DNA of 48,105 nucleotides, taken from NCBI GenBank assembly GCA_043813525.1, contig JBDRKY010000115.1:1-48105 (forward strand). The letters are read 5' to 3'. Source of the DNA: Candidatus Woesearchaeota archaeon. GTDB taxonomy: Archaea > Nanobdellota > Nanobdellia > Woesearchaeales > DSVV01. The notes under the pieces were generated by a model that saw only the letters and a program-made list of their open reading frames with translations, ran no database searches and was not told the DNA's origin. Positions 266-35,123 of this stretch are shown here, piece after piece. Numbering within the stretch: the first letter of the stretch is position 1; each line of letters opens with the position of its first letter. The position numbers were made by a program, and so were the translations under genes.

Positions 266-3200
266 TTGATTAGTTTAGATAAGCAAATTAAATTTATTGC
301 TAGTTTTATGATACTTTTAGTTATCAGTTTCCCATTTTATATCAGCAGTGTATATGCGATAGATATTTCAAATGTAAAAGTATATGGAAATGATGGTGTT
401 GAAGGATATACTAAAACAGATGATGACACAGTCAATGTTGAGGTTACATTAAGCAAACCCATAGATACAACAGAGATATTTATCACAAGCAATGTTTTGG
501 GAATCTCTGAAAATATATTCAACAGCTGTGATGATAAAATATGTATATTTGATTACCCTATAAACAATAAAGACTCTAAAGAATATTCTCTTGAGATTAA
601 TGTAAACACTGCTGATGGAGAATCAGCCTCTAAGACACAGAAATTCTGCGCAGACGGCAGTGCGCCAACAGTTGTGATTAAAAGTGTGTCACAGATAGGT
701 AAAGAGCTGATTGTGAAATTCTCTGCATCTGATAAAGCACCTACAAACTGCGCACCAACAATGCTGAATGATGCTACACTATTCATCAATAACGAAATAG
801 TTGGAGATATAACATTTGACGGCGATAAATCAACAGAAGAAAAGTATTTTACAATTACACAAGACCAGCTTGGAAATGAAGCTGATGAAACCAGTGATAA
901 ACAGATATGTATAGAGACAACAGACAAACTTGGAAATGCAGGTAAAAGCTGTTGGGAAAATTCAGTTAAACTTGATTTTTCAGCGCCAGACATACTTGAA
1001 GATACCTTAGTTGTTACAGATATGGATGATAACCCCATAGGATATGTTGCTGGATTAAAAGAAGATGAAGATAAGGATATAACAACAAAGATAAAGATAA
1101 AAATCAATATCTCTGAAGACCAACTAATCCAAAGCAAGACAGCAGGAGATTTCAGCACATTGACAATCAAAGGAAGCCTGAAAAAGAAATATGAAAACAT
1201 GAAACCAGAATGCACAAAAGATAAAACACAAAATGTGTATGAATGTGTCTGGAGCGGTATAGAACTGGACAGCAAAGTAGCTGTTTTTAATGTCAAATTC
1301 ACTGCAGTAGACAATGCAAACAACAAAGACAGCTATGAAGCGACACTGCCAATCAAAAGAGTTACAGATAATCCTTTGCTCAATAATATCTGGATTGTCG
1401 GAAAAGAGGACGAAGTTCCTATTTATCTCAGTGGAGCCAGTGGAAAAAATAGTTATGATATAATTGTTCAAATAAGTGATTTAGTTGGCTTTAACAACAA
1501 CAAAAATCTAAGGTTAGAATTGTTTGGGCTGACAGGTCAGACAACACTTGAGAATAACTGCATAGAAACAACAAAAGGCGTATGGGAATGCCCATTTAAT
1601 AATACTAAACCAAATAGCGGAGCAGAAAAAGGAGGCATTTCTGTACAGAGTGATTCTGAAAATGATATTGGCAAATTTATTGATCTTGGTACTGACAAAG
1701 ATATATTAGTCAAGGAAGTTATCATAGACAGCACTCCTCCATCAATCGCAAAGGTATTTAATCCTGTACAAAGTGAAGTAGTTATTGATGGAAAAACAGT
1801 TGAAAAACCAGTAGAATATGGCGGTAGTATATTAATACCAGGTAAAGATGCTGTTGCAGAATCAACTGACTGCCCAACTTACGAAGATTCTTATGACTTG
1901 ACAATATTTGCTTCTGACAATAATCCATTATCAGTCATTGCTGACACATCACCTATATCAAACAATGACATAACAACTGGCCAGTGCACAGAAACAGATT
2001 TTCAAGATTATGATTTTTTAGAATGGGGCAGTGGAGGAAGTGGGAAAAAAGCATTTGAATGCACCTTGTCTGTGAGCAACATAATCCCTATAGATTTGGG
2101 AAAAACCAATAAACAGGAATTTACTATCAACATAACAGATGCTTCTGGAAATACAAAATCAATCAAGCATAGTGTTGGATTGTGTACAAGTGATTATAAC
2201 CAAAAGCCAGATGTGATTAAATCTATATATGTTGATGAAAGCCAAACACCAATACCATCCCTGCATAAGAAAACTTTGCAAAACACAGATATTCCCATCA
2301 TATTAAAACTAAATTATGAATTCAAAAATACTGATGTAACTGTACTTTCTCAGGACATAAGCTGCAATCGTGCAAGTGTGGAATTTCTTGACAGCGAAAA
2401 AGTAGTTAGCGGCTCAAAAAAAGAAATAAGCAAGACAATTGTCTTCACAATGACTAAACAGACTGCAACAACAGATGATCCAAATGTAGAATGGGATGAG
2501 TCAGGTGAGATAACAGACACATCCAATTTAATAAAATGCACAGCAACAATGAGTGTGATGCATAGGAACATGATATATTCGCAGGTAGAGCAGGAAGAGT
2601 TTGAATTAACAGTGCCTCTTGAAGGTGTTATTATGGGCGAAGCAACTGACACCATGAAAAACGCGATAAAGAGCTTGAATGATCAGATTGCAGATGAAAC
2701 ATCTATGTGGGATAATATAGAAAAAGTCATAACTGCTTTAGAGATATTGTGTAATATCGCAGAGTTTCTCGGTGAAATAAATACTATACTCCAGACAGCA
2801 AAAAGCGTGCTATATGGAATTTCATTGGTAATAGAATCAATATACACAGGCAGCGGCACTTCTTTATGGACAGCAGTCTGCTATCCAATGGATAAGATTC
2901 ATTATTACATATCAAAATATATCTGGCCGTCTGGTTCATTACCAATACCATGGAAACCAGGATTTATATTCAAATATATATGTATGTATCTAAACTGCAC
3001 ATTGTTCAGGCCAGAAACATGGGCAGCAGTTGCTGCTGAAGCAGGTGAGATTGGATTGAGAGCAGCAGCCATGGAAATGACAGATGGAATAGATAAGAAA
3101 GCGTATGAAAATGCACAAGCAGAAGCAAATGCAGCAAATAAAGCAGTTAATGATGCTAGAAACAAAAATAATAATCAAGTTCCACAAGAATTAGTCAATA

Positions 3201-4162
3201 AAGCAAACGCAGCTAATGAAAAGCTAGATAAAATGACTTATGGATCTAAAAATCCAAGAAATTACTTTGACCAGGAAGGGACAGTGCAGCCAGCTGATAG
3301 GCCTGTAAAAGATGATAAAGGCAATGTAGTTAAAAATCAAGATGGCACAACAAGGATGGAAACTCCTCATCCTTTGGCACTTTCAGACACTGGAGTAACT
3401 GGAAAAGAGACTTTGGATATGATAAGAGCGCCTTGGAGTGCATGGAATGTGAGAGATGATGAATCTGATAGCTTGCTGTCGATTGATTCAGATTCATTGC
3501 AGGAAGAGATGGAAGCGCAGAAACAAAGTGGATATAAAACCGAATGGCTAAATTTCAATATCAAAAAGATGGAAAAAGCTGTTAAAGATGATTGGGCAAG
3601 CGGTGAGATGATTGATCCTTTCAGAGTGGAATATTTCGCATGGTTCTGTCCAAGAGCTACATTATATAACACCCAGAAAAGAAAACAAATCATATGCGCG
3701 CAGAAGATGTGCCATCTCCAGTCTATAAAATATGGTATGAGCCCTGCAGCATGTGATAAAGCAAGAGATATACATTGGTGCCTTTATGTTGACAGTGCAT
3801 ATTATCATCTGCTTGGTGGTGGAGGTGGATTGTCAGCTGCATGGGGTGAAGTTTTCCTTGATACATTGTTATCACAGCTTGCAGAGATGGCAATAACTTA
3901 TCTTGCAATTGGTTTAGTCGGGTGCTGGCCTTATTTTTCACCATCTGGCTCTGCATCAACAACTTACTGCAGTAGTCTTCAGGGGCAAGGATGGAGAAGC
4001 TCATTATGCGGCCTTGGCATGGCTGCGCTTGGCATAGCTGAACTGCAGGAGTTAGTGTCTGGAATAGGTGATAAATTCAGTGGTATGTTTAGTGGTGGTG
4101 AAGATTTTGAAGCAGACTATTGCACTAAAGCATCTGAACTTGAGTCACAGGTGATTTTATGA
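266..4162 (+). CDS. Large exported protein (cassette gene A1): beta-rich Ig-like repeats plus Cys-rich helical C-terminal domain
   Basis: 1298-aa ORF with signal peptide ending SSVYA, repeated DxxGN and DxxxP motifs, and many paired Cys. Visibly paralogous to 28865-32821. Confidence 0.8.
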   Translation: MISLDKQIKFIASFMILLVISFPFYISSVYAIDISNVKVYGNDGVEGYTKTDDDTVNVEVTLSKPIDTTEIFITSNVLGISENIFNSCDDKICIFDYPINNKDSKEYSLEINVNTADGESASKTQKFCADGSAPTVVIKSVSQIGKELIVKFSASDKAPTNCAPTMLNDATLFINNEIVGDITFDGDKSTEEKYFTITQDQLGNEADETSDKQICIETTDKLGNAGKSCWENSVKLDFSAPDILEDTLVVTDMDDNPIGYVAGLKEDEDKDITTKIKIKINISEDQLIQSKTAGDFSTLTIKGSLKKKYENMKPECTKDKTQNVYECVWSGIELDSKVAVFNVKFTAVDNANNKDSYEATLPIKRVTDNPLLNNIWIVGKEDEVPIYLSGASGKNSYDIIVQISDLVGFNNNKNLRLELFGLTGQTTLENNCIETTKGVWECPFNNTKPNSGAEKGGISVQSDSENDIGKFIDLGTDKDILVKEVIIDSTPPSIAKVFNPVQSEVVIDGKTVEKPVEYGGSILIPGKDAVAESTDCPTYEDSYDLTIFASDNNPLSVIADTSPISNNDITTGQCTETDFQDYDFLEWGSGGSGKKAFECTLSVSNIIPIDLGKTNKQEFTINITDASGNTKSIKHSVGLCTSDYNQKPDVIKSIYVDESQTPIPSLHKKTLQNTDIPIILKLNYEFKNTDVTVLSQDISCNRASVEFLDSEKVVSGSKKEISKTIVFTMTKQTATTDDPNVEWDESGEITDTSNLIKCTATMSVMHRNMIYSQVEQEEFELTVPLEGVIMGEATDTMKNAIKSLNDQIADETSMWDNIEKVITALEILCNIAEFLGEINTILQTAKSVLYGISLVIESIYTGSGTSLWTAVCYPMDKIHYYISKYIWPSGSLPIPWKPGFIFKYICMYLNCTLFRPETWAAVAAEAGEIGLRAAAMEMTDGIDKKAYENAQAEANAANKAVNDARNKNNNQVPQELVNKANAANEKLDKMTYGSKNPRNYFDQEGTVQPADRPVKDDKGNVVKNQDGTTRMETPHPLALSDTGVTGKETLDMIRAPWSAWNVRDDESDSLLSIDSDSLQEEMEAQKQSGYKTEWLNFNIKKMEKAVKDDWASGEMIDPFRVEYFAWFCPRATLYNTQKRKQIICAQKMCHLQSIKYGMSPAACDKARDIHWCLYVDSAYYHLLGGGGGLSAAWGEVFLDTLLSQLAEMAITYLAIGLVGCWPYFSPSGSASTTYCSSLQGQGWRSSLCGLGMAALGIAELQELVSGIGDKFSGMFSGGEDFEADYCTKASELESQVIL

Positions 4163-4818
4163 TAGCAGAATATAAAAAAAGCAAGCTTACAAGAACTTTA
4201 AGAACAATTTGGTTTAATAAATTCATCAAAAAGATTACAATATTATGCTTATGCCTGCTCATATTTAATTTGTCTTTCATCAATACTAATTCACAATCTT
4301 TGGATTATGATGAGAATGGCATAGATGATCTAAGAGAGACAGGATGGTTTATTTATCCATTACTACCGCAGTTTTATGCAGTGGCAGATTGGGAAGTTGC
4401 TGCATGCCTGCATTATAGTGGAGGAGAACAGTTAGAGCCAAAGAATATTGCATCTGCCTTAGGAGCTTCAATGCAGAAAGCATATCCAGGACAGATAAAT
4501 TCAATAAGCGCTTCAATGACAAAAGATTATCCTGATCCTGATGACCCTTACAAACTTACAAATATGTATCAGGTCTGCTGGGCTGTTCTTCCTGTAGGTG
4601 AGACAAGCATGAAATTCAGTGTTTATCTTAATGATGGAAAGAACCTGAAATATGAAGTAGCAAAAGATAAAAGCGCTCAACCGTATGTAGGCAATGGTGG
4701 ATGCGAAATAATATATTCAAAAGATAAATACACTAAAGCATATATTATCATACCAGGCCCAATACTATTGCCGCCTGCGAATGTTATGGATATTGTTGAT
4801 AAGAAAGAAGTGACATGA
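4159..4818 (+). CDS. Exported/membrane-anchored hypothetical protein (cassette gene B1)
   Basis: ATGA overlap with the A1 stop; N-terminal hydrophobic segment; resembles the C-terminal ~200 aa of 22988-27682. Confidence 0.75.
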   Translation: MIAEYKKSKLTRTLRTIWFNKFIKKITILCLCLLIFNLSFINTNSQSLDYDENGIDDLRETGWFIYPLLPQFYAVADWEVAACLHYSGGEQLEPKNIASALGASMQKAYPGQINSISASMTKDYPDPDDPYKLTNMYQVCWAVLPVGETSMKFSVYLNDGKNLKYEVAKDKSAQPYVGNGGCEIIYSKDKYTKAYIIIPGPILLPPANVMDIVDKKEVT

Positions 4819-4829
4819 TTAAAGTTAAA

Positions 4830-5038
4830 AAATCCCAAATCCCAAACCCCAAATCCCAAATCCCAAATCCCAAATCCCAAATCCCAAATCCCAAATCCCA
4901 AATCCCAAATCCCAAACCCCAAATCCCAAATCCCAAACCCCAAATCCCAAAAAGGAGCTACGCCCTATATTATTTTTGTTTTTGGGATTTGTTTTTGTTG
5001 GGATTTGTTTTTGTTGGGATTTGTTTTTGTTGGGATTT
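4830..5038 (+). repeat. Inverted heptamer-array element, copy 1: 17 x AAA(T/C)CCC, a 29-nt core, then 4 x GGGATTT at 16-nt period
   Basis: Counted directly: heptamers 4830-4948, core AAAAAGGAGCTACGCCCTATATTATTTTT 4949-4977, GGGATTT at 4984, 5000, 5016 and 5032. Confidence 0.95.
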
Positions 5039-5070
5039 ACTGCTGTAGGCAGTTAAGATTAAATAATAAA

Positions 5071-5976
5071 ATGGAATCAAAAACATCAAATATGATTAAA
5101 AAAATCAAGAAAAACAATTTTGTACCTGATTATATCAGAAATTATGCTAAAGATTATGTTAAATCAATCAATGTGTTCAGGAGTTATAAATGGAAAATAT
5201 TATGGATACTTTTGATTGACATATCATACCTATTCTTGTTTTATCTGATTGCTGCATTAGTTGTCGGCAGTGTTATGAATACATATATTGATGATGTTCT
5301 TCCATTTGCAGAGAAAGTAGGCCAGTTAAAAAACATGGATATGAATAATAAATATTTAGATGAGATGAAAAAAGTTTCGCAAGAGCTGAAGGATATGTTT
5401 TCAAGTGATGATATGATATCAATAATATTCAAAGTTAGCAGTAGATTCATAGGCAAGATGCTGTTAGGTATATTTGTCCTTATATTGTTTGCATCAGCAG
5501 TAAAAGCACTTATCTGGAGCATCATAAGAAGCTCATTCAAAAGAGCTCATAGATTTGTGTTGTACAATGCTATTTGGATAGTTATGTGCCTATTATTTTT
5601 AGTGTTTGGAACAATCCTGATAAAACAAGATGTCATGATAAGATTATCATTGTTCTTATTCATCGCATACAGCTACTTATCAACAATATTAAAGATAAGA
5701 TACAATGATGAAAAGCCTTTGTTCAGGCAGATATGGACAAATATAACATTTGCAGTGAAATATTTTATACATTACCTTCCAATATATATTGCAGTGATTA
5801 CAACATCAACAATTATAATTATAATTATCTATACATTATTTCATATTTTATTACCTAATATCCTGCCAATGGCAGTAGGAAATCTGATATTAAGCCTGAT
5901 TATCTACATTGCCTTATTGATATTTATCAATTGGGGAAGGATATATATGTATGAAAAGACGAGGAAAACAGCTTGA
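5071..5976 (+). CDS. Multi-pass membrane protein (cassette gene C1); start uncertain
   Basis: About 6 hydrophobic segments; paralog of 21005-21832. The track start (TTG 5005) lies inside the repeat, so ATG 5071 or 5092 is more plausible. Confidence 0.75.
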   Translation: MESKTSNMIKKIKKNNFVPDYIRNYAKDYVKSINVFRSYKWKILWILLIDISYLFLFYLIAALVVGSVMNTYIDDVLPFAEKVGQLKNMDMNNKYLDEMKKVSQELKDMFSSDDMISIIFKVSSRFIGKMLLGIFVLILFASAVKALIWSIIRSSFKRAHRFVLYNAIWIVMCLLFLVFGTILIKQDVMIRLSLFLFIAYSYLSTILKIRYNDEKPLFRQIWTNITFAVKYFIHYLPIYIAVITTSTIIIIIIYTLFHILLPNILPMAVGNLILSLIIYIALLIFINWGRIYMYEKTRKTA

Positions 5977-8495
5977 AAAAAACAGATTCCATAAACAAAA
6001 GATTACAGAAAAAATCACAGGTCACAGTATTCATCATAATTGGTATAGTGATATTGCTCGCAGTAGGTGCTTTTATTTATATGAAATCCATCACCACAAA
6101 ATCAGGCAGCTCATTATCATTGATACAGGAAGAATCACCTAGAGAATTCAAGCCAATACAAAGCTTTATCACACAATGCCTTAAGGAAGTATCTGAAGAA
6201 GCAATAAGAAAGATAGGAATAGGAGGAGGACATATTGATTTAACTGACCCTTTGTACAGCACAGTAAGCTACAATCTTGATAAACAAAATCCTACTGAAA
6301 GCGATGGCATTATTGTCAGTGATGACCAAAAACTATTGTACTGGAATTATATGTCATCAGGAAATGGCTGTTCTTATAATGGATGTTATGTCAACTTTGA
6401 AGTGCCTGTATTTGATGAGATGAATGTTGAGATTGAGACTTATGTCAATAATAATGTTGAAGCATGCTTTAATAAGTTCACTGCATTTGAAAAAGATGGT
6501 ACAAAGATTACACCATTATCTGATTTTCCTGAAACTACAGTTGATATTGCTAAGAAAGATGTTGTTGTTCAGCTAAAATATCCGATTGATATAAAAAAAG
6601 GCTCATTAAACCACAGATTAGAGTATTATAACATTATACATCCAGTCAATCTAAGAGGGTTTTATGATACTGCTTTTACTATTGCGAATGCAGAGGCAAG
6701 AAACAGGTTCCTTGAGAAAGGAATTCTTTATGTGATGTCATTTTACCGAACAATGGACCCTGAAAAACTACCACCATTGATTGCCTCAAGCTATAAGCCG
6801 GAAAAGATTAAATGGTCAAAAACAGCTGTGAAAACAAAGATACAGGATCTGATAAAAGCTTATACGCCTTTGTTCAAGGTTGAGAACACAAAAAATGGAG
6901 ATAAGATAACATCAGATAAGATTATTGATGATAACATCTACAATTATCTATATCTCAAAAATAGTTATGAATTTCTTAAAGATTATGATATCAGATTCTA
7001 TTATCTTGACTGGCCTCTTTATGTTGATGTTACTCCAAGCAAAGGTGATGAGATATCTCCAGATATGGCAGACCATAATGTTGCAGACCAGATGACAGTA
7101 ACAACAAATAATTACAGATTCATGTATGATATTGCAGCACCTATATTGGTAGAGATCAAGAATAAAGATGATTATGACGGCAAAGGATACAGTTTCTTTT
7201 TTGCTTTAGAAGCTAATATAAAAAATAATTATGATATTTATACACATATGACATATGCAAGCCCAAAACTGCCAGATGATCTGTTTGAGGTTGAGCATCC
7301 TGAAGCTCTCAACAAAGAAAAAAAGATTATGACTGATAATGGAGATGAGATAACAATAGGTCCTGCAGAAAAACTTCCAAATGATCATATTTTCTGTGAA
7401 GATGAACAAAGAGAGGGGCCTAAGATTGATTTCATAATCCAGGAAGATAAGACAAACAAGCCCATAGAGACAGCAAATATATTTCTCATCTGCGGGCCTT
7501 TTTTCCAGTGCAGAATTGGACAGACAGACGCAGACGGCAAAGCAGCAGGTAAACTGCCATACTGCAATGGGGGCGCAATAAAAGTAGAACATAAAGATTA
7601 TCACACTGCATTAAGGCCTTTTGATGAATCAATACCTAACATGGCGCCAGACAAAATAGTTATGAAACTTTCAAAGCCAATCACTAAAAAATTTGTGATG
7701 AGAGTATTGAATTATGAAGACCTGATAAATGTTCCAGACACTATGCTGAAGAACAGCCAGTTCAAACAATTCAGAAAACAATTCAAAGATACATTTGCTT
7801 ATGAAGAATTTGGCAAAAATGTCACAATCACTGCAATGTTTACAAGAATATCTGAAAATGCATACACACCAGATTTTACCAGAGTAGCAAAGATAAACCT
7901 GCTGAGCTCAAAGATGGAAAGTGAGATTGAATTAGTTCCTGCAGATGTGCCATCAGGTTATAATGTAGAAATAATGTATATCAATCATTCAGTGCATATC
8001 ATGCCGTATGAAGATGATGATAATTATTATAATAAAAAAGATGAAGAAACAGGCAAAGAAGTCCATGTAACATCTGAAAAAGTGGATAATACAATGCCAG
8101 GCGCTGCAAGATTAAATGCAGATGATAATTATCCATGGAACATTAATTATAATGATCTTTTGGATCCAGATAAAGATGTAATCATATTTTATATCATAAA
8201 GATGAAGATGCCAGAATATGCTGAAGGAATCAAATATATAGCTGATGCGCCTAAACATTCAAAGAAATACAGATGGTTTATCCAACCAGAGCTGATATCA
8301 TCAAAAGACCTGAAGCCTGCGTTTAAAGGTGGAACAGGAGGTTTACCTTTGGAATCAGGAAATTCAGGCAGTTCTGGCGGAGCTACTGATAGTGATGGCA
8401 CAGAAGGAAATAGTGGAGAAAGCGAAGAAGCACAAAAACAAGAAAAAATTGAGAAATTAATGAAACAGGCATTAGAACAGGGGCAGGTAAAATAA
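5973..8495 (+). CDS. Class III (prepilin-type) signal peptide protein, long form (cassette gene D1)
   Basis: KKSQ-VTVFIIIGIVILL leader; family motif PIQSFITQCL...IGIGGGHI; full-length similarity to 32859-35123; start overlaps the C1 stop. Confidence 0.8.
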   Translation: MKKTDSINKRLQKKSQVTVFIIIGIVILLAVGAFIYMKSITTKSGSSLSLIQEESPREFKPIQSFITQCLKEVSEEAIRKIGIGGGHIDLTDPLYSTVSYNLDKQNPTESDGIIVSDDQKLLYWNYMSSGNGCSYNGCYVNFEVPVFDEMNVEIETYVNNNVEACFNKFTAFEKDGTKITPLSDFPETTVDIAKKDVVVQLKYPIDIKKGSLNHRLEYYNIIHPVNLRGFYDTAFTIANAEARNRFLEKGILYVMSFYRTMDPEKLPPLIASSYKPEKIKWSKTAVKTKIQDLIKAYTPLFKVENTKNGDKITSDKIIDDNIYNYLYLKNSYEFLKDYDIRFYYLDWPLYVDVTPSKGDEISPDMADHNVADQMTVTTNNYRFMYDIAAPILVEIKNKDDYDGKGYSFFFALEANIKNNYDIYTHMTYASPKLPDDLFEVEHPEALNKEKKIMTDNGDEITIGPAEKLPNDHIFCEDEQREGPKIDFIIQEDKTNKPIETANIFLICGPFFQCRIGQTDADGKAAGKLPYCNGGAIKVEHKDYHTALRPFDESIPNMAPDKIVMKLSKPITKKFVMRVLNYEDLINVPDTMLKNSQFKQFRKQFKDTFAYEEFGKNVTITAMFTRISENAYTPDFTRVAKINLLSSKMESEIELVPADVPSGYNVEIMYINHSVHIMPYEDDDNYYNKKDEETGKEVHVTSEKVDNTMPGAARLNADDNYPWNINYNDLLDPDKDVIIFYIIKMKMPEYAEGIKYIADAPKHSKKYRWFIQPELISSKDLKPAFKGGTGGLPLESGNSGSSGGATDSDGTEGNSGESEEAQKQEKIEKLMKQALEQGQVK

Positions 8496-8521
8496 TCTTT
8501 GAATAAATAATATGCAGCAAA

Positions 8522-10456: not shown

Positions 10457-10555
10457 TGAATTTATACTGCATTAAAATCGAAAAGTATTTAAAGAAACAC
10501 GCATTCAGGAATGTAGAATAATGAGATTTTTCTCGTCGAGAAAAGTGATATATAA

Positions 10556-12619
<2,064 letters not shown>

Positions 12620-12627
12620 GTTTTATA

Positions 12628-12801: not shown

Positions 12802-12802
12802 A

Positions 12803-14231: not shown

Positions 14232-14286
14232 TGTTATTTATGATTGATTGAAAAATAATAAAAGAATAGAAAAAGCATAAATAAAT

Positions 14287-15047: not shown

Positions 15048-15072
15048 GCAGATTGATTTCTTTATATTTAAT

Positions 15073-21832: not shown

Positions 21833-21986
21833 TAAATATGTATATTTAAATATTTAACTAATTATAGAGCAAGTACAGGCAATGTAATTAAATTAGTACT
21901 ACATAAAAACAATAGATTTAAATATATGTAGTACTAATTATATAATTATAATAAATTATTTGTAATGCAATGTTGATGGTGGTGTT

Positions 21987-22973
21987 ATGATGATAAAATT
22001 AACAATTAAAACAATCAAAGGGAAAAAATATAATTACCTGGAAAAAACAATCAGAATAGGAAAGAAAGTAAGAAAAGTCTCTAAATATATAGGAACAGAT
22101 GAGAATATCAAAAAAAAGAAGATTGAAAAACTTAAGGAAATCTTCAGAAAAGAGCTTTTTGAAAGAACAATGAAAATCAGGGTTAATATAATAACAGAGA
22201 ATATAGATAGATTTGAATACCCTTTATCCAGTGAAGATATTAAAAAAATTGAAGAGATGAATTTCAAACATAAAGAGATCATGAGTAATCTGCATCCAAA
22301 AGATATTGAAGACCTAAATAAGAGATTTATCGCAAATTATGTCTTTGAAAGCAATGCATTAGAAGGAAACTCACTTACATTGAAAAATATAAACGAGATA
22401 ATATTTGAAAACAGAATAAGCAAAGGCAAAGATCTCAGAGAAATATATGATGCGCAAAACTCATATAACTTATTTTTATACTTACAAAAGATCAGAGAGG
22501 AAATCAGTGATAAGCTGATTATAAAAATACATAAATTACTGATGGACAAGATAGATGACAGATTAGGATATAGAAAAATACCAATATTCTTAATAGGCAA
22601 ACCTAACACAAAACTCTCAAAAGCTGATAATGTACAAAAAGATATGGATAATCTCCTCAAATGGTACAAAGATAATGAAAATAAGCTTTATACTTTAGAA
22701 CTAGCATTCAAGTTTCATGCAAAATTTGAAAAGATCCATCCTTTCTGTGACGGCAATGGAAGAGTAGGAAGATTTTTATTGAATTATATATTAATAAGAA
22801 AAGGCTATTTCCCAATAATAATCAGAAAAACAACAAGAAATAGTTATCTTAAAGCACTTGAAGCAGCTGATAGAGATAAATGGATTGTGTTGATGAGATT
22901 TGCCTTAAAACATTATAAAGATACATTCAGAAAATTTTTTGAAGTGTATTATAAGTATGGCAAGAAAGATTAA
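21987..22973 (+). CDS. Fic family protein
   Basis: Canonical HPFCDGNGRVGR motif plus ESNALEGNSLT. Confidence 0.93.
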   Translation: MMIKLTIKTIKGKKYNYLEKTIRIGKKVRKVSKYIGTDENIKKKKIEKLKEIFRKELFERTMKIRVNIITENIDRFEYPLSSEDIKKIEEMNFKHKEIMSNLHPKDIEDLNKRFIANYVFESNALEGNSLTLKNINEIIFENRISKGKDLREIYDAQNSYNLFLYLQKIREEISDKLIIKIHKLLMDKIDDRLGYRKIPIFLIGKPNTKLSKADNVQKDMDNLLKWYKDNENKLYTLELAFKFHAKFEKIHPFCDGNGRVGRFLLNYILIRKGYFPIIIRKTTRNSYLKALEAADRDKWIVLMRFALKHYKDTFRKFFEVYYKYGKKD

Positions 22974-22987
22974 TATATAATGAAGAA

Positions 22988-27682: not shown

Positions 27683-28136
27683 CTTTCATACAATCCCTTA
27701 TTGTCACCCTTAATCGCTCAATCTTATCTTTGTTAAAATCATTTAATATAAGCTTACATTTGATTACAAAAGACTTCACATTATCTTCACTTTTTAATTC
27801 CACGTCTTTTATATAATATTGCGCATCAATTCTATCTTTTTTTAATTTTTTCAGGAATATATATTCTTCATCATTAAATTCTTCAAATAATTTCATCAAT
27901 TCAATTGTACAATCATGAATTTCAGATTTTACTCCTGCTTTCATCAAAATAGAATATAATGCATGATAACAAGCATAATAACCTGTGATTACTTTCCATT
28001 TTTTATTTGCAACAATCATCATTTCAATTGTTTCATCTGCTTCTTTCAGATATGATTCAGAGAGATGATACTTAAAATCTATCAGGGTAATACCTCTTTT
28101 TTGCTTACAACACCATATTAGTTTTTGATCAGTCAA
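27675..28136 (-). CDS. HEPN domain protein (MNT-HEPN pair)
   Basis: GYYACYHALYSIL...SEIHDC...RIDAQY. The in-frame TTG at 28136 follows GGAGG and overlaps the MNT stop (track start 28160). Confidence 0.85.
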   Translation of the reverse strand: MTDQKLIWCCKQKRGITLIDFKYHLSESYLKEADETIEMMIVANKKWKVITGYYACYHALYSILMKAGVKSEIHDCTIELMKLFEEFNDEEYIFLKKLKKDRIDAQYYIKDVELKSEDNVKSFVIKCKLILNDFNKDKIERLRVTIRDCMKDA

Positions 28137-28797
28137 AGTTCTGCCTCCATAACACATCAATCAAACTATTGATATTGCCAAAAAATTTATGATTTAACAA
28201 TACTTCTTTTGCTAATGGATTTTTTTTCTTAAATGAATTTTCTAACTCTTTTAAAGTAACATATTGAATATTAATTGTCCTAACATATTTTTTCAGAATT
28301 TTATCAACTTCATTTTTTTTGCATTTACCTACTGAAATAATGTCAATATCTGATTTTAGATCATAAGTATTTGATGAAAAAGAACCAAATAAGATTATAT
28401 TATCCATCACCTCTAACAATTCAGGGATAAGTATAGAGAGTTCTTTATTCCCACCTAGAATAATCAATGAACTGGCTGTCTCTGCCATCTGGATATACAT
28501 TTTTGTTTTCAAAGTTGAAGCTAGGAAATATAATTTATGATTCCCTTTTCTATGATAATCTAATATGTTCAATTTAACTAAATCATTAATCTTATCCAAA
28601 GCTGTTTGATGATTTATTGAGAGAAGCCTAGCAATTTCCCTACCATTATATTGAAGATTATACCCTTTAAGAAATATTGATAGTATGTCTAAATTTTTAG
28701 ACAATTGTCTATTTTTAGCAGACATTAATGAATTATGGCTAACATTAGCCATATTTGGCTTAACTATATTTTTTACACTCCTTTTGTTTACAATCAT
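28129..28797 (-). CDS. HTH-fused minimal nucleotidyltransferase (MNT)
   Basis: N-terminal HTH (GREIARLLSINHQT); LFGSF...SDIDI nucleotidyltransferase motif. Confidence 0.88.
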   Translation of the reverse strand: MIVNKRSVKNIVKPNMANVSHNSLMSAKNRQLSKNLDILSIFLKGYNLQYNGREIARLLSINHQTALDKINDLVKLNILDYHRKGNHKLYFLASTLKTKMYIQMAETASSLIILGGNKELSILIPELLEVMDNIILFGSFSSNTYDLKSDIDIISVGKCKKNEVDKILKKYVRTINIQYVTLKELENSFKKKNPLAKEVLLNHKFFGNINSLIDVLWRQNFD

Positions 28798-28864
28798 AAC
28801 CCCACCTAATTAAATATATATTATAATCTGTGAATGAACCAAATTAAAAAAAAGGATATCTTAA

Positions 28865-31800
28865 CTAATACTCTGGCGTTGTGCCAAACTCTTTTCTCTG
28901 GCTTTCAAAATCATCCTCTACCTTGTCATCATCATCACTGTCATCGCCCCAGTCAAACATATCCTTAAGCTCATCTGCAAGCTGCTGGATGTTGGTTATC
29001 AGGCTGGCAAAGGCAAGAGCTCCAACAATGCCATTCTTTATCCTTACTCCTGCACAGCTCAATCTCTCAGCTTTTGTAACACCTGTACATCCAACTTCAA
29101 ATAATCTTGATGCCAATGACGAGACAAGCTTGACACTGAACTGCCTCAAAAGATCAGGAAGTATATGAGCAAACTGGCCAAATGTGAGCATACAGACTAT
29201 TCTCCACGTCAAATCAGGACAGTCTTCTATGTCTTCACCTAAAAGATAAGCCTTGTTCATGCAGGTATTCTGCGCAACCAATGCTCTTTTGACAAGCTCT
29301 AAAGTATTTTTGATAGTAGGAATGCAAGGAGGCCAACAAATCAATGCCACCCAAAAATTTTTATGAGGATCAAATGGGAACCTTATAGTAGAGGAACCAG
29401 CCCAATAATCTTTTGGATCAATTGGCTTGCCAGGATTTGCCTTGTTTAATTTTTCCAGCTCTGTCTCTGACAATGGACCTGCACCAAGGCCTGCATCTGC
29501 CCATAACTGATCAGGCGACCAACTATCTATGTTCCACTTTCCGCCTGTTATCTTTGTGTTCCATGCCTGTGAACATGATGAGCATAAAGTAAGGTCGCAA
29601 AAGAATCCTAAGCTTAAGATTTCTTTGCTGTTCCATGGAGGATCATCTGAATTTGCATTTGAATCCTTGCTTCCTGTCCACAATGTATTAAGCATGTCTG
29701 CACCTAATTTACATTCTTTTGCTGCTGCTTCTGCAGGTGCATAAGCTGCTCCAACACCCTCAAATATCATACATATATCATTCCATATCTGCATCACAAG
29801 ATTGATGACTTTACAGAATGGAGCTATCTTCATTATGAAATCAAGGACATCTATTATCTTATCAAGAACATCAATCGCATCTTTATATTCCAAAATCTTA
29901 TCAAGTGTGCTGTCAGCAGGATTTGTGAATGGGGTTGCACTCAAAGGAATAACAGCTGAAAAGTAAAATGCTTCATTTGGTGTGTAAATCTTCTTGCCGG
30001 ATTTTGATGTTTGAACAATATCACCTTTACAAGCTATGACTAATGGTTCAGGAGCCACATTAGATGCAGTAGAAGCTACTGTTTCAGTCTTAGCTTCTTC
30101 TTTATCATCAAATTGTGCTATGCCAAACAATATCTCCTTCACTTCTCTGCTCTGTGTTGGTCCTAACAAAGGATATGTCTGTGATACAATAGCAACAGGT
30201 TTCATGCTGCCTTCAGCAAATGCTTCACCAATGCTTGCTGTGCATTCCCTTATATTAAAATCATGGACAAATGATGAATCTGATTTTCTATATTTATTAA
30301 GATCTAATTCCATTCTGAACAAGGTCTGGGTGCTCATCTTCAGGAAATTCCTGTTAAGCATATAATCACTGCCAAACGCAGGAAGTTTAGTAACATCAAT
30401 CTTAAACTCATCTTCAAAAAAGTCAACCTCACCTTCTTTTGCCTGGTAAACAGTGAAAGTATCTGAGCTTGCAGTTGCAGTATTCTCTGCTAAATCTGTT
30501 GCACTCAAAGTAAACTTATAATTGCCTGATTTTGAAATAGTAGGCAATTCCCAAATACAATCATAGACAAACTGCTGCGCTAATTCTTCATTAATCTCAC
30601 AGCCTGTCACTGGCAATGGATCAGACCAAATAGTCTTATCACTTAATTGCGCAGTGATTTTCGCAAGATTAAGAGGACTATTAGCTTCTTGGAGCTGTGC
30701 TTTGATAATGATGACATCACTCTCTGCTGTTGTGATTGGATAAGATACTTCTGTCTCTTCTGTTTCTCCTGTTGCTTGTCCTGCTATTGCTTGACCTGCT
30801 GTTGCTTGTCCTGCTATTGCTTGTCCTGCTATTGCTTGTCCTGCTATTGCTTGTCCTGCTATTGCTTGTCCTGCTATTGCTTGTCCTGCTGTTGCTTGAC
30901 CTGCTGTTGCTTGTCCTGCTGTTGCTTCATCTGCACCAGATACATCTCCACTAGATGAAGCTACTGATGTTTCTCCACTTTCTCCAATAGATGCTGATGA
31001 ACCTCCACCAGAACTCCCACTTATAGCACTAGAACCACCATCAACACTCAATCCATAAGATGCAGCTGACATCACTTTTATTGAATCCTTGACAAAGACA
31101 GGAGCTGTTCCGTCATAATAAAGTTCCTGTGATAATTCTCCAAATTCTGAACTTACTGCATTTCCTGCTATATCATGAGTATCAGAATGAACTACAATCT
31201 TACCTTTATACAGCATCAGATAATTGTTCTCATCAAAATAAGGTTTAGCATTCTTAATATTTTTAGGAGCCACATTATCCCATTTACATTGATAACCACC
31301 ATCTAGCTGAATACATTCACTTGGAGAAACCTTTGAATTGCCATTTATCTCTGTCATGTCAATCCATACCATATCCTTAGTAAGACCAGACTGCTGTTCA
31401 ATAATTTCTACATATATAGTATTCTTTGTCGTGCCATTAAGATATGGACCAAGATCAGTGTATATGCCTGCCAGCATTGGTGGAGTCTCATCTTCTTTTA
31501 AATCAAGACTATAAGATGATTCAGCTGAATTGCCATCATTATCAGTAATTACAATCTTAAGGCTAAGTTCTGCTGTACCTCCTTGATTATCCAGTTCAAT
31601 ACCTTTCCACCTGAACTGATATGTGGTAACTTTATCCTCTCCTGTACCTTCTGTTATTGCCTCAACATCTGAAGCTGTTTTTTTCTTGTAATTTGATTTA
31701 CTTGGATTCAAACCTGAAAAATCACCTATTGCATTTGCTGTGCCTAATGCATTGTCATCTGTAACATTAAGATAGATATCAACAGATGGTTTCTCATCTT

Positions 31801-32821
31801 TCTTGATATAACCTAATATATTGCCATCTTTTTTTACAACCAATGAGCCATCATTAATCTCAGGAGCAGTAAGATCCAAATTTTCTTTATCGCATTTTTC
31901 AATCTTATTGTCAACATTATCAACTGCCTTTATGCAAAACTCAACCTCTCCGCCTGCAATACCAAGCTCTTGATATGTTTTTGAGACTGTCTTTTCATAA
32001 TCACATCCTTCAAGATCAGCAGCAGCGACTGTATAAAAAGAATCACCTGCAATTGAATCGTCTTCTCCATCTGCACTGCTTTCTCCATCTGCACTGCTTC
32101 CTCCATCTGCGCTACTTTCCCCATCTGCACTGCTTTCTCCGTCTGAAGCACCTGCTGATGCAGATAAACCTGTGCCTTCTTTCATATATAATGATATCTC
32201 TTTAAGACCACTGCATTTACCAGAGCATTCAGAAGAAATGCAAGCTATCTCCTCAACATCAATGCCAAATTTGACTTTCTGGTCTGATGCTTTTTTGCTT
32301 GTTGTGAATTTGACAATCTTTGGCTTTTCAGAATCAACAATAATCTTACCTGTTTTCTTGCTCAATGATACAAGATAAGTATCTGTGAGCTCAACATTGA
32401 AATCCACAACACCACCTTTATTATTATATTGTGATGTCTTAAAAGTGCAGTCATACATACCAGCCTCACTGCCTGATACACAATCTTCAGGATAATGTAT
32501 AAAATTGTCTGCAAAAGTTATCCTTACCTGTTTAGTATCATCAAAACTTTCACCAGTATACAACAGACTTACCTTAATAAATATGTAATCATCATCAGCG
32601 CTTGATGTATAGCCCTCAATATTATCTTTTCCCATCGCTGATATATTGCTAATCTTACCCTGCAGTCCAGGATCTTCCAATGGATCCACAGCATAGACAG
32701 AGCTTACATACACAGGTAACATTATAACAAGACATATCATAAAAGAGGCAATGAGCTTCAATGTAGCTGTAGCTAATTTCTTATTCCCTTTATAATTATC
32801 ATTTGTTTTTTCTATTACCAT
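28865..32821 (-). CDS. Large exported Cys-rich protein (cassette gene A2), paralog of 266-4162
   Basis: Signal peptide also ending SSVYA; GKDNIEGYT matches GNDGVEGYT of A1; shared C-terminal Cys pattern. ATG 32821 avoids overlap with the upstream gene (track start 32890). Confidence 0.8.
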   Translation of the reverse strand: MVIEKTNDNYKGNKKLATATLKLIASFMICLVIMLPVYVSSVYAVDPLEDPGLQGKISNISAMGKDNIEGYTSSADDDYIFIKVSLLYTGESFDDTKQVRITFADNFIHYPEDCVSGSEAGMYDCTFKTSQYNNKGGVVDFNVELTDTYLVSLSKKTGKIIVDSEKPKIVKFTTSKKASDQKVKFGIDVEEIACISSECSGKCSGLKEISLYMKEGTGLSASAGASDGESSADGESSADGGSSADGESSADGEDDSIAGDSFYTVAAADLEGCDYEKTVSKTYQELGIAGGEVEFCIKAVDNVDNKIEKCDKENLDLTAPEINDGSLVVKKDGNILGYIKKDEKPSVDIYLNVTDDNALGTANAIGDFSGLNPSKSNYKKKTASDVEAITEGTGEDKVTTYQFRWKGIELDNQGGTAELSLKIVITDNDGNSAESSYSLDLKEDETPPMLAGIYTDLGPYLNGTTKNTIYVEIIEQQSGLTKDMVWIDMTEINGNSKVSPSECIQLDGGYQCKWDNVAPKNIKNAKPYFDENNYLMLYKGKIVVHSDTHDIAGNAVSSEFGELSQELYYDGTAPVFVKDSIKVMSAASYGLSVDGGSSAISGSSGGGSSASIGESGETSVASSSGDVSGADEATAGQATAGQATAGQAIAGQAIAGQAIAGQAIAGQAIAGQATAGQAIAGQATGETEETEVSYPITTAESDVIIIKAQLQEANSPLNLAKITAQLSDKTIWSDPLPVTGCEINEELAQQFVYDCIWELPTISKSGNYKFTLSATDLAENTATASSDTFTVYQAKEGEVDFFEDEFKIDVTKLPAFGSDYMLNRNFLKMSTQTLFRMELDLNKYRKSDSSFVHDFNIRECTASIGEAFAEGSMKPVAIVSQTYPLLGPTQSREVKEILFGIAQFDDKEEAKTETVASTASNVAPEPLVIACKGDIVQTSKSGKKIYTPNEAFYFSAVIPLSATPFTNPADSTLDKILEYKDAIDVLDKIIDVLDFIMKIAPFCKVINLVMQIWNDICMIFEGVGAAYAPAEAAAKECKLGADMLNTLWTGSKDSNANSDDPPWNSKEILSLGFFCDLTLCSSCSQAWNTKITGGKWNIDSWSPDQLWADAGLGAGPLSETELEKLNKANPGKPIDPKDYWAGSSTIRFPFDPHKNFWVALICWPPCIPTIKNTLELVKRALVAQNTCMNKAYLLGEDIEDCPDLTWRIVCMLTFGQFAHILPDLLRQFSVKLVSSLASRLFEVGCTGVTKAERLSCAGVRIKNGIVGALAFASLITNIQQLADELKDMFDWGDDSDDDDKVEDDFESQRKEFGTTPEY
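30771..30926 (-). repeat. In-frame 15-nt tandem repeat, 10 x A(T/I)AGQ
   Basis: GCTATTGCTTGTCCT-type units on +; the protein reads ATAGQ/AIAGQ ten times. Confidence 0.95.
32063..32144 (-). repeat. In-frame 18-nt tandem repeat (ADGESS, about 4.5 copies)
   Basis: TTCTCCATCTGCACTGCT-type units; protein SDGESSADGESSADGGSSADGESSADGE. Confidence 0.9.
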
Positions 32822-32858
32822 TTTAATCACAATTATTTTAGCTTGAAACTTCAAGCCT

Positions 32859-35123
32859 TTATTTACTAAATATAGGTTGTATCTTATCATAATTTATGCT
32901 TGAACATGCATCTCTATGGCTAAGAGCAATGAAATAATTCTCTATCTTCTGTGGTTTTCCTTCATCAAATACATATAATGTCATCTCCTTCTTGCCATCA
33001 ATATCATCTGGTTCAATTGTCATGATATAATTTGCTCCGCCAGAGATTATTGAATCTACTTGCTGATCATCATCTGGATAATACACATCCTTGTCTTTTT
33101 CGAATAAAGCCCCATCAATATGATATGATTCGCTGTTCTTCTTGATATCAAGCTCACCTTTCCACTTCTCTCCTCTAATCAGCATGATATCAACCTGATA
33201 CACACCAGGAGCAAGCTCTATCTCTGGCTTATTTTCTTCTGTGTAAAATGCAAAAGTATAAGGGTTTGTTGAAGCGATAGTAGGATCAATCCTTTTCAGA
33301 TTTATAATCGCCTGCTCATTCTTGTCAAGCACAGAAGCTGATGTATAAAGATTGCAACCAACAACTTGGCCATCTTTCAGTATGACGCCCTGTTTAGGTT
33401 TCAGTCCAGCTTTCTGCGCTGCCTCTAAGTCTTCTTTTGGTATAGGAGCAATTGTAAAATATTTCTGTATGTTCATACTGAGCTTTGTCAGTTTTGCCAG
33501 CTCAATCATTGTAGTAAATTCCTTATTAGGCTGCACATCACCAATGATAACTGCATCTTCACCATAACCTTTCTTTTCTACAACAACTGTTGCTCCGCCA
33601 AGGCAAGGAGGAAACTTAGATACCATTGCGCCTGATTGATCTGTCTTGCCTATAAAACATCTGTCGCTGAAAGGTGTTGAATTAACTAGTGTACCATTCT
33701 CATCATACTCATCTACAACAGAAGGGCCGCACTGATAATAAACCATAGCATCTGACAAAGGAGCTGAAGTCTGCTTGTCTATAACATTAACAACGCTCTC
33801 CTTACTTGTCTTCTGATCTTCACCGCATAGATATGTCTCCCTTGGCATTGTCTCAAGGCCAAGAACATCCTTGATGTCAGCTCTTGGGAAATTTGCTTTT
33901 GTTACAACCAACAGCGGAAACTGGAATATAAAAGGCTGCTGATTTATCCTGGAATCCTTGTCAACAAGAGTCACAAGCACAGGATATTTGAATGAATAAG
34001 GAAATTTATAGATGAACACACATTTCCTGCCAAATAAATAATTAAAATCCATCTGTGTAGGAGGTTTTATCATGCCTTTCTGACCCAGGTCAAGCTCAAG
34101 AGGAAAATTAGGGCGGTATTCAAACATAGTAAGAAAATCAGGATAACTGCTTTTGCTGACCTCTTTTGTCATCATGTCAAATATTCCCTGCATTGTAGAC
34201 CTCTTCTCTTCATCTTTCTGCTCACCCTGAGAAACTATAATCCTCTCAAAATCACTATTTCGTATTTTCAAGTATGGAAGGTTCATCGCAAGCACATTCT
34301 TAAAGCTGGAATGCACCTTATCTTCCATCCAATAAGTCATATCATTGCAGTCCACAACCTGCAAACCTCCAAACAAAGGCGGCAGATAATCAGGATTGAC
34401 ACGGCCATACATTGTGATAAGGTTCATTGTATTCTGCTCAAGAAAAGTTGTAGTCTCTTCGTAAGAAGCGATTTCCCTTGCAAATGTATAAGCTTTCTTC
34501 ACCCTTGCATTAACTTTTGTGCTGAAATGCTCAAGCTTGACTAAATTCTGATCCTTAATCAGATTCAAAGGATAATTCAATGTGACAACAACATCCTCTT
34601 CTGTGAATATTACTGATACAGACATCTCACCTAATGCTTCAACTACAGTACCCTGCTGCTTAAATATATCAAAATCATTGATGCATGTCGGCATATTCTC
34701 TGTGATATATCTTTCTAATTGATCCTGTACAGAGCCATCATTTGCGCTTGTCTTCTCAAGTTTTGGCATCTCACTCCTGTCAGCGCCGCCAACCCTCTGA
34801 TAATACCAATATGGAATAGCCTGATATTCTGAAACCTTAAGAACTGGAGATTCTAATGGCGCAAATTCATTCATATCTAATGGATATTGGTCTAAATATA
34901 TATGACCGCCCTGCTGACCAAGAACAACTATGCCCTGTTCAGTGATCTTCTGAAGACATTCCTGTGTATATGCAGTGACTGGGTCAGCTTGTTTCTCACC
35001 GATAATATCTTCTTTAGTAACAATACCTGTAAAATAAACAACACCAAAAACTAGAATCAATGCGACTAAACCTATGATAATAAAAATAGTAGCCTGAGCT
35101 GATTTATTCCTCTTTTTATACAT
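32859..35123 (-). CDS. Class III signal peptide protein, long form (paralog of 5973-8495)
   Basis: KSAQ-ATIFIIIGLVALIL leader; PVTAYTQECL...LGQQGGHI; FLEQ..P.YLPPL; YQCGP...CFIGKTD...PPCLGG. ATG 35123 follows GAAGGTG (track start 35153). Confidence 0.82.
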   Translation of the reverse strand: MYKKRNKSAQATIFIIIGLVALILVFGVVYFTGIVTKEDIIGEKQADPVTAYTQECLQKITEQGIVVLGQQGGHIYLDQYPLDMNEFAPLESPVLKVSEYQAIPYWYYQRVGGADRSEMPKLEKTSANDGSVQDQLERYITENMPTCINDFDIFKQQGTVVEALGEMSVSVIFTEEDVVVTLNYPLNLIKDQNLVKLEHFSTKVNARVKKAYTFAREIASYEETTTFLEQNTMNLITMYGRVNPDYLPPLFGGLQVVDCNDMTYWMEDKVHSSFKNVLAMNLPYLKIRNSDFERIIVSQGEQKDEEKRSTMQGIFDMMTKEVSKSSYPDFLTMFEYRPNFPLELDLGQKGMIKPPTQMDFNYLFGRKCVFIYKFPYSFKYPVLVTLVDKDSRINQQPFIFQFPLLVVTKANFPRADIKDVLGLETMPRETYLCGEDQKTSKESVVNVIDKQTSAPLSDAMVYYQCGPSVVDEYDENGTLVNSTPFSDRCFIGKTDQSGAMVSKFPPCLGGATVVVEKKGYGEDAVIIGDVQPNKEFTTMIELAKLTKLSMNIQKYFTIAPIPKEDLEAAQKAGLKPKQGVILKDGQVVGCNLYTSASVLDKNEQAIINLKRIDPTIASTNPYTFAFYTEENKPEIELAPGVYQVDIMLIRGEKWKGELDIKKNSESYHIDGALFEKDKDVYYPDDDQQVDSIISGGANYIMTIEPDDIDGKKEMTLYVFDEGKPQKIENYFIALSHRDACSSINYDKIQPIFSK

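Follow-up and report, generated by a model that had tools for sequence, protein, structure and literature searches.

We analysed a 48,105-nt stretch of DNA from a Candidatus Woesearchaeota archaeon (contig JBDRKY010000115.1, assembly GCA_043813525.1), hereafter the window, which carries two sets of genes that we call A, B, C and D, each set followed by a gene labelled E. The first set (A1 to E1) lies on the plus strand and the second (D0, A2, B2, C2, D2 and E2) on the minus strand (Table 1). An earlier note on this DNA, made from the letters alone, had described the two sets as inverted, syntenic copies of an apparently undescribed five-gene surface or secretion cassette. All the open reading frames (ORFs) that it named are present in the six-frame ORF list, with D0 starting at 35153 and not at 35123, and the 4-nt overlaps between A1 and B1 (ATGA) and between C1 and D1 (TTGA, with TTG as the start codon of D1) are seen in the sequence. 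Both gene sets are present, but the second copy is not contiguous, as a nucleotidyltransferase/HEPN gene pair and a Fic gene are inserted in it. We found that the A-B-C-D core recurs in many other genomes of the order, and that none of its four proteins matches a described family.

The architecture of the cassette was compared among 100 loci, namely 20 neighbourhoods of A genes and 80 loci found by the D N-terminal motif (595 stretches matched the pattern, 402 of them encoding D relatives). Two contigs were present twice (L071 = L039 and L077 = L052), and counts are therefore given over non-redundant proteins. The titles of the loci name Candidatus Woesearchaeota, Nanoarchaeota and Nanoarchaeia, and also third-party metagenome-assembled genomes labelled 'uncultured Methanosarcinales'. 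Among the 89 non-redundant A genes, 33 had at least 7 kb of downstream sequence, and 22 of these 33 are followed on the same strand by B, C and D, which bears out the conserved syntenic core proposed in the earlier note. In two more (L050 and L109), C and D follow A, B having been missed by the rule because its ORF reached too far into A; nine genes make up the rest. A D gene is placed directly upstream of A in 60 of the 79 A genes with enough upstream sequence, a count biased by the choice of 80 loci via D. The genes are tightly spaced: the median gaps are −4 nt from A to B, −4 nt from B to C, 3.5 nt from C to D and −4 nt from D to A, with overlaps possibly overstated, as gene starts were those of the longest ORF.

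Two arrangements recur among these loci. Type 1 has the order A, small B, C, D and then a convergent E; its B proteins are 154-204 aa long, with one of 831 aa, and E is convergent to D in 13 of the 14 type-1 cassettes. Type 2 has the order D, A, long B, C, D. The two types often stand in tandem ('A B C D E< D A ...'), as in L090, L097, L099, L102, L142 and L128. By these arrangements, the two cassettes of the window are one of type 1 and one of type 2. In the window E1 is co-directional with D1, unlike the convergent E of most relatives. In 8 of the first 20 loci the cassette has a methionyl-tRNA synthetase gene as its neighbour, so that its context is one of housekeeping.

The E genes had been taken as exchangeable cargo, a proposal that we rejected: E1 belongs to a conserved neighbour family, with the constancy just given for type 1, and no relative of E2 was found among the 100 loci, so that E2 is probably outside the conserved core. 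That E1 and E2 are unrelated was rightly noted, as BLASTP gave nothing between them.

Protein A is widely distributed. A profile of 21 A sequences matched 13,917 representatives at E ≤ 1e-3, 5,036 at 1e-10 and 1,531 at 1e-30 among 1.84 billion, and the best 150 matches are nearly all full-length, in proteins of about 1000-1570 aa. A1 alone found matches in 112 of 301 genomes of the same order, and the A profile in 256 of the 401 genomes of a phylum sample at 1e-5. The strong matches are all in the order of the window; only ten, all weak (1e-6 to 1e-14), come from other orders within the class, and they are probably matches to the immunoglobulin-like (Ig-like) modules. In many families A is near-universal (f1 7/7, f44 28/29, f94 41/42, f81 11/11). 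The C profile has matches in 61 of 101 genomes of the order, and the best C match is commonly on the same contig as A, a few kb away (G098, G076, G119, G007, G010 and G025, all genomes in both tallies). The tallies include genomes flagged as unpublished (G112, G121, G206, G208 and G210 in the A1 search of 301 genomes; G112, G206, G210, G422 and G525 in the phylum sample; G112 in the C tally). Judging from these matches, the cassette is specific to one archaeal order and is shared by most Woesearchaeota-type archaea. Words of the window sequence occur in DNA sequencing runs, two at about 0.4 and one at 0.06, all of them labelled as groundwater metagenomes.

In the window's own genome (1.65 Mb, 89.7% complete), the A genes number exactly two and so do the C genes; all four lie within the window, the only place where B-profile genes occur as well. 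D is more numerous, with three full-length genes and five D-like genes that have the N-terminal part only; several of the D-like genes flank giant surface proteins of 2132, 2405 and 9871 aa. A third, partial cassette-like locus lies on contig C35 (12154-23758), with a 647-aa protein of the B2 type (39% identity to the C-terminus of B2), a full-length D (704 aa) and the 2132-aa surface protein. On contig C81 (7643-38929) a D-like gene adjoins the 9871-aa ORF, which extends to the contig end, and on contig C68 (31358-48025) another adjoins proteins of 1394 and 2405 aa, followed by four small pilin-like genes.

The relationship between the two copies differs from gene to gene. The earlier note had read shared motifs by eye in A, C and D, and the paralogy of A1 and A2 is clear by BLASTP (E 1.7e-24, 25% identity across 582 aa). 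For D, it is clear between D0 and D1 (1.7e-39), while D2 (1.7e-5 with D1, 0.005 with D0) has only the N-terminal ~200 residues in common with them, aligning with positions 4-220 alone of the 705 in the D profile. C1 and C2 are not significantly similar in the pairwise comparison (BLASTP E 0.24); they are assigned to one family because a C profile of 19 relatives, built without the window proteins, scores both C2 (4.7e-27) and C1 (1.2e-22) far above the next ORF of the genome (0.059). The match proposed between B1 and the C-terminus of B2 is plausible and weakly shown. There is no BLASTP match between the two proteins, and a B profile of 16 relatives scores B1 at 4e-16 and does not reach B2 even with 72 members (E 82). 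The C-terminal ~300 aa of B2 represent a small subfamily (10 sequences, in 8 of 301 genomes), and hhalign aligned the profile of these 10 sequences to the C-terminal half of the 72-member B profile with a probability of 64% (P 6.4e-5, 86 colinear columns). Position agrees: long proteins (359-1784 aa), placed between A and C as B2 is, account for 40 of the 72 with a B domain, which is near the C-terminus except in L053 (831 aa), where it is N-terminal, and one B2-type protein, in L133, is also located between A and C.

A recent local duplication of the cassette was rejected, because A1 and A2 have closer relatives in other genomes than in one another, and so have D0 and D1. A FastTree phylogeny was made from 82 A proteins after alignment to the profile, and it puts A1 in a clade of 24 rows with a Shimodaira-Hasegawa-like support of 94 (below the 'starred' level of 95), which includes all the 13 rows with a small B and no upstream D. 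A2 pairs with L133 (99) and L057 (96), among the rows with an upstream D. In the tree of 128 D proteins, D1 belongs to a set of 31 rows (support 99) containing all the 24 rows in which D lies after C and E follows; in L133, the D upstream of A is the partner of D0 (99), and the terminal D is that of the full-length D from contig C35 of the window's own genome (99). The positional classes of D require 28 changes on this tree, against a mean of 56.8 when shuffled, and none of 200 shuffles was as low. Both trees were obtained with a quick method and have long branches, so that their deep order is unsure. As far as these sequences tell, A1 and A2 are clearly not mutual closest relatives, and the two copies are two ancient cassette types and not the product of a local duplication.

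Table 1. Cassette genes, inserted genes and spacer repeats of the window.
Feature	Position	Strand	Description
A1	266-4162	+	secreted 1298-aa acidic protein; type-1 A
B1	4159-4818	+	small secreted B-domain protein, 219 aa
Microsatellite (AAATCCC)x17.4	4830-4951		B1-C1 spacer
16-nt repeat x3.6	4982-5038		B1-C1 spacer
C1	5071-5976 (ATG) or 5005-5976 (TTG)	+	C-family membrane protein; start uncertain
D1	5973-8495	+	840 aa; TTG start; prepilin-like N-terminus KKSQVTVFIIIG; type-1 'after C' D clade
E1	8522-10456	+	conserved neighbour family E
D3	13563-14231	-	222-aa D-like protein, N-terminal D module alone
E2	16234-19248	-	1004-aa signal-peptide protein following D2
D2	19262-20926	-	D module in the N-terminal ~200 aa; remainder Ig/CshA-like repeats
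C2	21005-21832	-	C-family membrane protein
Fic gene	21987-22973	opposite to copy 2	between B2 and C2
B2	22988-27682	-	1564 aa; occupies the 'long B' slot of type-2 cassettes
HEPN gene	27675-28160	-	pair with nucleotidyltransferase, between A2 and B2
Nucleotidyltransferase gene	28129-28797	-	pair with HEPN, between A2 and B2
A2	28865-32890	-	type-2 A; probable start is the ATG at 32821
D0	32859-35153	-	full-length D immediately upstream of A2, the type-2 order

Protein A has a conserved signal-peptide-like N-terminus (consensus A.F.I.LI..LP.Y...V.A), about five Ig-like modules, bordered by D...P and each holding a conserved pair of cysteines, and an acidic isoelectric point (pI 4.5). The modules show weak matches to Rib/Ig-like domains in PDB (6v3p_C, 8e-4; 8cxj_D, 3e-3). 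They are followed by a cysteine-rich, partly hydrophobic C-terminal domain of ~520 residues (about 780-1298 in A1), a long stretch of which resembles only designed helical bundles, with non-significant PDB matches. In this domain, 11 cysteine columns are conserved at 90% or more and two others partly, and moderately hydrophobic segments are conserved near residues 850, 1210 and 1255, with a family-mean hydropathy of 1.0-1.4, under that of typical membrane helices. The family diverges strongly, with 22-29% identity between genera. In A2, a 15-nt repeat (x10.4, 30772-30927) encodes an (A/T)GQA(I/T) run, and (SADGE)n is encoded by an 18-nt repeat (32063-32145); in frame and variable, the two are linkers separating Ig-like modules.

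B consists of a signal peptide and a domain of ~140 residues with invariant W63, E79 and C83, the last being its single invariant cysteine. C is basic (pI 9.8 for C1) and has 6-7 membrane helices; no residue is invariant in the family, so C is probably not an enzyme. D is 550-900 aa long and begins with the stretch K-(K/R)-(G/S/A)-Q-(V/I)-T-x-F-I-I-I-G, nearly invariant in 50 sequences (positions Q16, T18, F20, I21, I22 and G24). It has two conserved cysteine pairs, one of the 50 members matches CarboxypepD_reg, and the repeats in the remainder of D2 are CshA/Big_9-like.

E1 combines two small helical repeats at its N-terminus with one membrane helix and an outer part rich in cysteines. Two copies of the repeated module, which is ~45 residues long and has a weak RecX_HTH1-like match, stand in E1 (8522-8860); giant proteins (3301 aa on C34, 386-10291; 2447 aa on C108, 255-7598) carry as many as eight at their C-terminal ends, and several small proteins have the module too. 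On the cytoplasmic side it may serve for docking as a common module. The product of a gene at 15073-16224 (+), convergent to E2, carries the catalytic domain of YkuD (L,D-transpeptidase; 5.3e-9), and E2 itself has a faint peptidoglycan-binding match (0.072). Such murein-directed domains are odd for an archaeon and could target bacterial walls.

Beyond gene order and gaps, the indications that the proteins work together concern A and B. In three genomes a whole A is followed by a B domain in one polypeptide: a 1611-aa protein in G175 (L158, C4, 8036-12871), with the A profile at 16-1053 and the B profile then aligned over its positions 4-173, one of 1527 aa in G080 (L159, C25, 1531-6114) and one of 1226 aa in G281, the third fusion locus being L043 (15550-19230). 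Each of the fusions is located upstream of another D-A-B-C-D cassette. By the classical fusion argument, they point to a functional and probably physical link between A and B. A multimer prediction had been suggested in the earlier note, and the pair A1 500-1298 with B1 45-219 gave weak support, with ipSAE values of 0.59, 0.59 and 0.55 against 0.38 for the best control, a partner pLDDT of at least 53 and at least 54% of contacts agreeing between runs. Among 80 solved complexes 58 attain this mark, as do 2 among 110 mismatched pairs; at ipSAE ≤ 0.60 it is attained by only 7 of the 80 solved pairs and by both passing mismatches. An intermolecular disulfide between the two proteins is hinted at, because the highly conserved cysteines of the A C-terminal domain are odd in number and B has a single invariant one; this parity argument is made weak by the two partly conserved cysteines of A.

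The surroundings of the two copies are those of housekeeping genes. Where they converge lies a stretch with gyrB and a PAC2-family gene, and beyond D0 are metH and the methionyl-tRNA synthetase gene. Of the genes inserted in copy 2, the nucleotidyltransferase matches NTP_transf_2 above the cut-off (2e-6, 28.6 bits) and the HEPN protein scores slightly under its cut-off of 22 (9.2e-4, 19.8 bits); the two genes are adjacent and overlapping, as in MNT/HEPN modules. The same pair is present between A and the long B in the type-2 loci L086, L113 and L135. This recurrent position matches the 'housekeeping context' in which MNT-HEPN genes of DPANN archaea are placed by Makarova et al. 2019 (PMC6393860).

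The B1-C1 spacer is 252 nt, unusually long against a median B-to-C gap of −4 nt in relatives, and is largely made of repeats (Table 1). The AAATCCC unit also occurs just upstream of D0, at 35228-35393, as TTTGGGA x12.4 on the plus strand, which is AAATCCC on the minus strand. A role of these arrays as cassette-specific signals was rejected, since 11 arrays of at least three perfect units lie on 10 contigs across the genome; the array might influence expression via slippage or pairing with the G-rich repeat. A 102-aa ORF over the second heptamer array (35172-35480) is probably spurious. Next to it, at 35533-36351 (+), 3.9 copies of a 102-nt repeat are found in the gene of a 272-aa protein that matches the mTERF family (7.6e-11), which is chiefly organellar and eukaryotic.

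The cassette proteins could not be explained through databases. No explanatory relative of A, B, C or D was found in Pfam, NCBIfam, PHROG, PADLOC or PDB profiles, and none of the ten cassette proteins matches PHROGs or PADLOC; the label 'apparently undescribed' therefore holds for these collections. Close homologs of A and D, where named, are called 'hypothetical protein'. In the ESM Atlas, D1 matches only unnamed clusters of Woesearchaeota/Nanobdellota and the shared CarboxypepD_reg-like domain, and the C-terminal part of A1 has no usable match. A word-index search with residues 740-1298 of A1 returned the query alone, which reflects the limit of the index and is not a sign of rarity. Literature searches found no description of the cassette; the supplementary tables of PMC6393860, PMC5898192, PMC8204110 and PMC9258230 could list the families. 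As for known surface-layer (S-layer) families, A1, A2 and all the D proteins match none in Pfam or NCBIfam, and the window's genome, at its completeness of 89.7%, has no match to S_layer_N (PF05123), S-layer (PF07752) or PGF-CTERM (PF18204).

The N-terminus of D raises the question of a pilus. The earlier note named class III signal peptides as marks of type IV filament subunits. D has the prepilin-like N-terminal stretch, and with the Class_IIIsignal family (PF04021) no match was obtained at E ≤ 1 for D0, D2, D3 and the C62 D-like protein (0/4), nor at E ≤ 0.1 for D1, versus 5 of 6 small pilins with 13.7-16.9 bits, themselves below the cut-off of 23.7. These small pilins, about nine in number and of the type K-(S/G)-Q-x-S-x-E-Y, are encoded on contig C54 of the same genome, outside the window, along with a pilus-type ATPase and two TadC-like genes, and a prepilin peptidase gene is on contig C47 (3807-4247; PF01478, 46.4 bits). 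This agrees with the expectation that a motor would be encoded elsewhere. D has F at position +5, where the ordinary pilins of this genome have E. Within ~10 kb of the cassette, motor genes (ATPase, TadC) were found in only one of the 100 loci (L079), and a prepilin peptidase fragment in one further locus. D may well be processed by the prepilin peptidase and held in the membrane by its N-terminal helix; its membership in a filament is not supported.

Our preferred, still tentative reading is that the cassettes encode a constitutive, lineage-specific complex of the cell envelope, either S-layer-like or spike-like. In such a complex, C would be a platform of 6-7 membrane helices without conserved catalytic residues, and D a large extracellular stalk protein, membrane-held by its prepilin-like helix, possibly after cleavage by the peptidase. 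A, exported by its signal peptide, would point outward, with about five disulfide-paired Ig-like modules as a stalk or canopy, and its C-terminal domain would dock on the secreted B and, via B or directly, on C and D. The assembly could be a coat or an array of evenly spaced surface spikes, in two isoforms, type 1 and type 2. Secretion and topology, anchoring by C and D and a structural function in the envelope are all predicted from sequence features, and the binding of A to B from the fusions and the weakly supportive complex model. The envelope reading fits because the distribution of the cassette is order-wide, position-conserved and low-copy in a housekeeping context, and because the genome has no recognised S-layer family.

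Several observations weigh against this reading. A carries 0.2-0.3 N-glycosylation sequons per 100 aa, compared with a genome median of 0.47, and has no C-terminal membrane anchor, the family-mean hydropathy peaking at only 1.0-1.4; few sequons and a missing anchor are atypical of archaeal S-layer glycoproteins. A coat protein would be expected to be universal, and A has no match in a few families (f54 0/5, f114 0/2). The C profile misses many A-bearing genomes, which could reflect low sensitivity, as such misses are expected from the poor conservation of C, or a dispensable C. The complex prediction for A and B is a weak pass, no RNA run was among the matches in the sequencing-run search for the window sequence, and a lattice is not inferable from sequence.

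A bolder form of the envelope reading, which we consider rather unlikely, is that A to D make up the long-missing coat of Woesearchaeota, a new kind of S-layer or spike array in which the Ig-rich A has no anchor of its own and is tethered via disulfide-linked B, the C platform and prepilin-processed D. If so, the two ancient isoform cassettes would allow two different cell surfaces. In its boldest variant the C-terminal domain of A would be membrane-active and would make a contact or a bridge to a partner cell.

The main alternative, in our view less probable than a structural envelope complex and on the whole unlikely, is a complex for contact with a host or partner, with A and D as adhesins on a base of C and B and the two types as two specificities. 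DPANN archaea are mostly episymbionts, according to PMC11291902, the modules of A are weakly similar to the Rib domains of bacterial adhesins, D2 has CshA/Big_9-like repeats, A diverges fast between genera (22-29% identity), and D-like genes elsewhere in the genome flank the giant surface proteins. Specificity determinants, however, are usually patchy, multi-copy and linked to mobile elements, while the cassette has a fixed order, one or two copies and a housekeeping neighbourhood throughout the order, and a study of co-sorted cells reported no symbiotic cell-cell associations for subsurface Woesearchaeota, as cited in PMC11606122. The C-terminal domain of A inspires another reading, that of a membrane-active or transport machine, in which this domain inserts into another membrane or fuses with it, or C and D form an export channel, leading to cytoplasmic bridges or protein delivery. 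Its hydrophobic segments near 850, 1210 and 1255, its likeness to helical bundles only (non-significant in PDB) and its 11 cysteine columns conserved at 90% or more would agree with this, as would the multi-pass nature of C; the idea is nonetheless based on composition alone, no ATPase or other energy source is present in the cassette or close to it, and no likeness to secretion, fusion or pore families was found in Pfam, PDB or PHROGs, so that we hold it to be very unlikely.

The pilus-associated complex put forward in the earlier note, with D as minor or tip pilins in a filament, A and B as tip adhesin and the motor elsewhere, was not sustained by the linkage and PF04021 results given above (1/100 loci with motor genes and one more with a peptidase fragment; 0/4 D-like proteins at E ≤ 1 versus 5/6 sub-threshold small pilins), and we deem it improbable. 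The nearly invariant K-(G/S/A)-Q and hydrophobic stretch of D, the peptidase (C47), ATPase and two TadC-like genes (C54) of the genome, the pilin-sized D-like proteins D3 (222 aa) and C62 (226 aa), and the D-like gene beside four small pilin-like genes on C68 all speak for it. So does the F in place of E at +5, as bacterial tip pseudopilins also lack the +5 glutamate. A class III signal, on the other hand, also anchors surface proteins that form no filament, such as the sugar-binding proteins of Sulfolobus. Least credible of all, and rejected, is an integrated virus or mobile element with structural genes. Toxin-antitoxin-like genes (nucleotidyltransferase/HEPN, Fic) lie within copy 2 and many proteins are unknown, but no cassette protein matches PHROGs or PADLOC (0/10), there is no integrase or replication gene, the neighbours are the housekeeping genes gyrB, metRS and metH, the distribution is order-wide and position-conserved, and the two to three clades track gene position and not a patchy spread.

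Woesearchaeota belong to the most widespread groups of uncultured archaea, and to our knowledge nothing is known experimentally about their envelope or their encounters with other cells. Few large gene sets are, like the cassette, specific to this lineage, nearly universal in it and wholly unannotated; protein A by itself accounts for over 1,500 sequence clusters labelled 'hypothetical' in public data. It could be used as a marker for the order, and A, B, C and D are defined targets for proteomics, cryo-tomography and the design of antibodies or labels in enrichments. Should it encode a coat or an apparatus for contact, the few known archaeal surface assemblies would gain a new architecture.

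Among the known systems closest to the cassette are two-component archaeal S-layers, such as SlaA/SlaB of Sulfolobales and the Ig-domain S-layer glycoprotein of Haloferax, where, as predicted for the cassette, a large acidic protein with a signal peptide and Ig modules stands beside a membrane-anchored partner. Low copy number and conservation across a wide lineage are further common traits. The cassette differs from archaeal S-layers in having no sequence relation to their families, in an A without C-terminal anchor or PGF-CTERM and with few sequons, and in its four to five genes, which include multi-pass membrane and prepilin-like proteins. D resembles archaeal type IV pilins (PF04021) in its basic residue, G/S/A, Q and hydrophobic helix, in a genome with a peptidase and a pilus locus, and departs from them in its length of 550-900 aa, its F and not E at +5, and its lack of a PF04021 match and of motor linkage.

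Comparable gene neighbourhoods have been flagged as uncharacterised in PMC5898192 and PMC6393860, where secreted Ig-like 'S-layer-like' proteins stand with small membrane proteins, as in the cassette. In the latter, a secreted protein found across DPANN (cls.004306/NEQ255) is 'often encoded next to' predicted S-layer-like proteins. In the former, Makarova et al. predicted a secretion system centred on arCOG01314, also with arCOG02487/arCOG02884 and defined by a MoxR-type AAA+ ATPase, a vWA protein and arCOG01314 itself (DUF4350). The cassette is unlike that system as described in PMC5898192: the defining ATPase, vWA and DUF4350 genes are absent from the window cassette proteins by Pfam, and none was noticed in the ORF maps of 20 loci. 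Finally, the Pam pili of bacteria in the candidate phyla radiation (CPR), presented in a 2026 preprint (PMC13278184), show that a lineage-restricted Ig-like surface system can be a new assembly. They are a bacterial donor-strand-exchange filament with chaperone/usher-like partners, unlike the cassette, and no sequence relation to it is expected; as portrayed there, they share with it the restriction to a lineage of ultra-small organisms and the use of Ig-like proteins of no previously known family.

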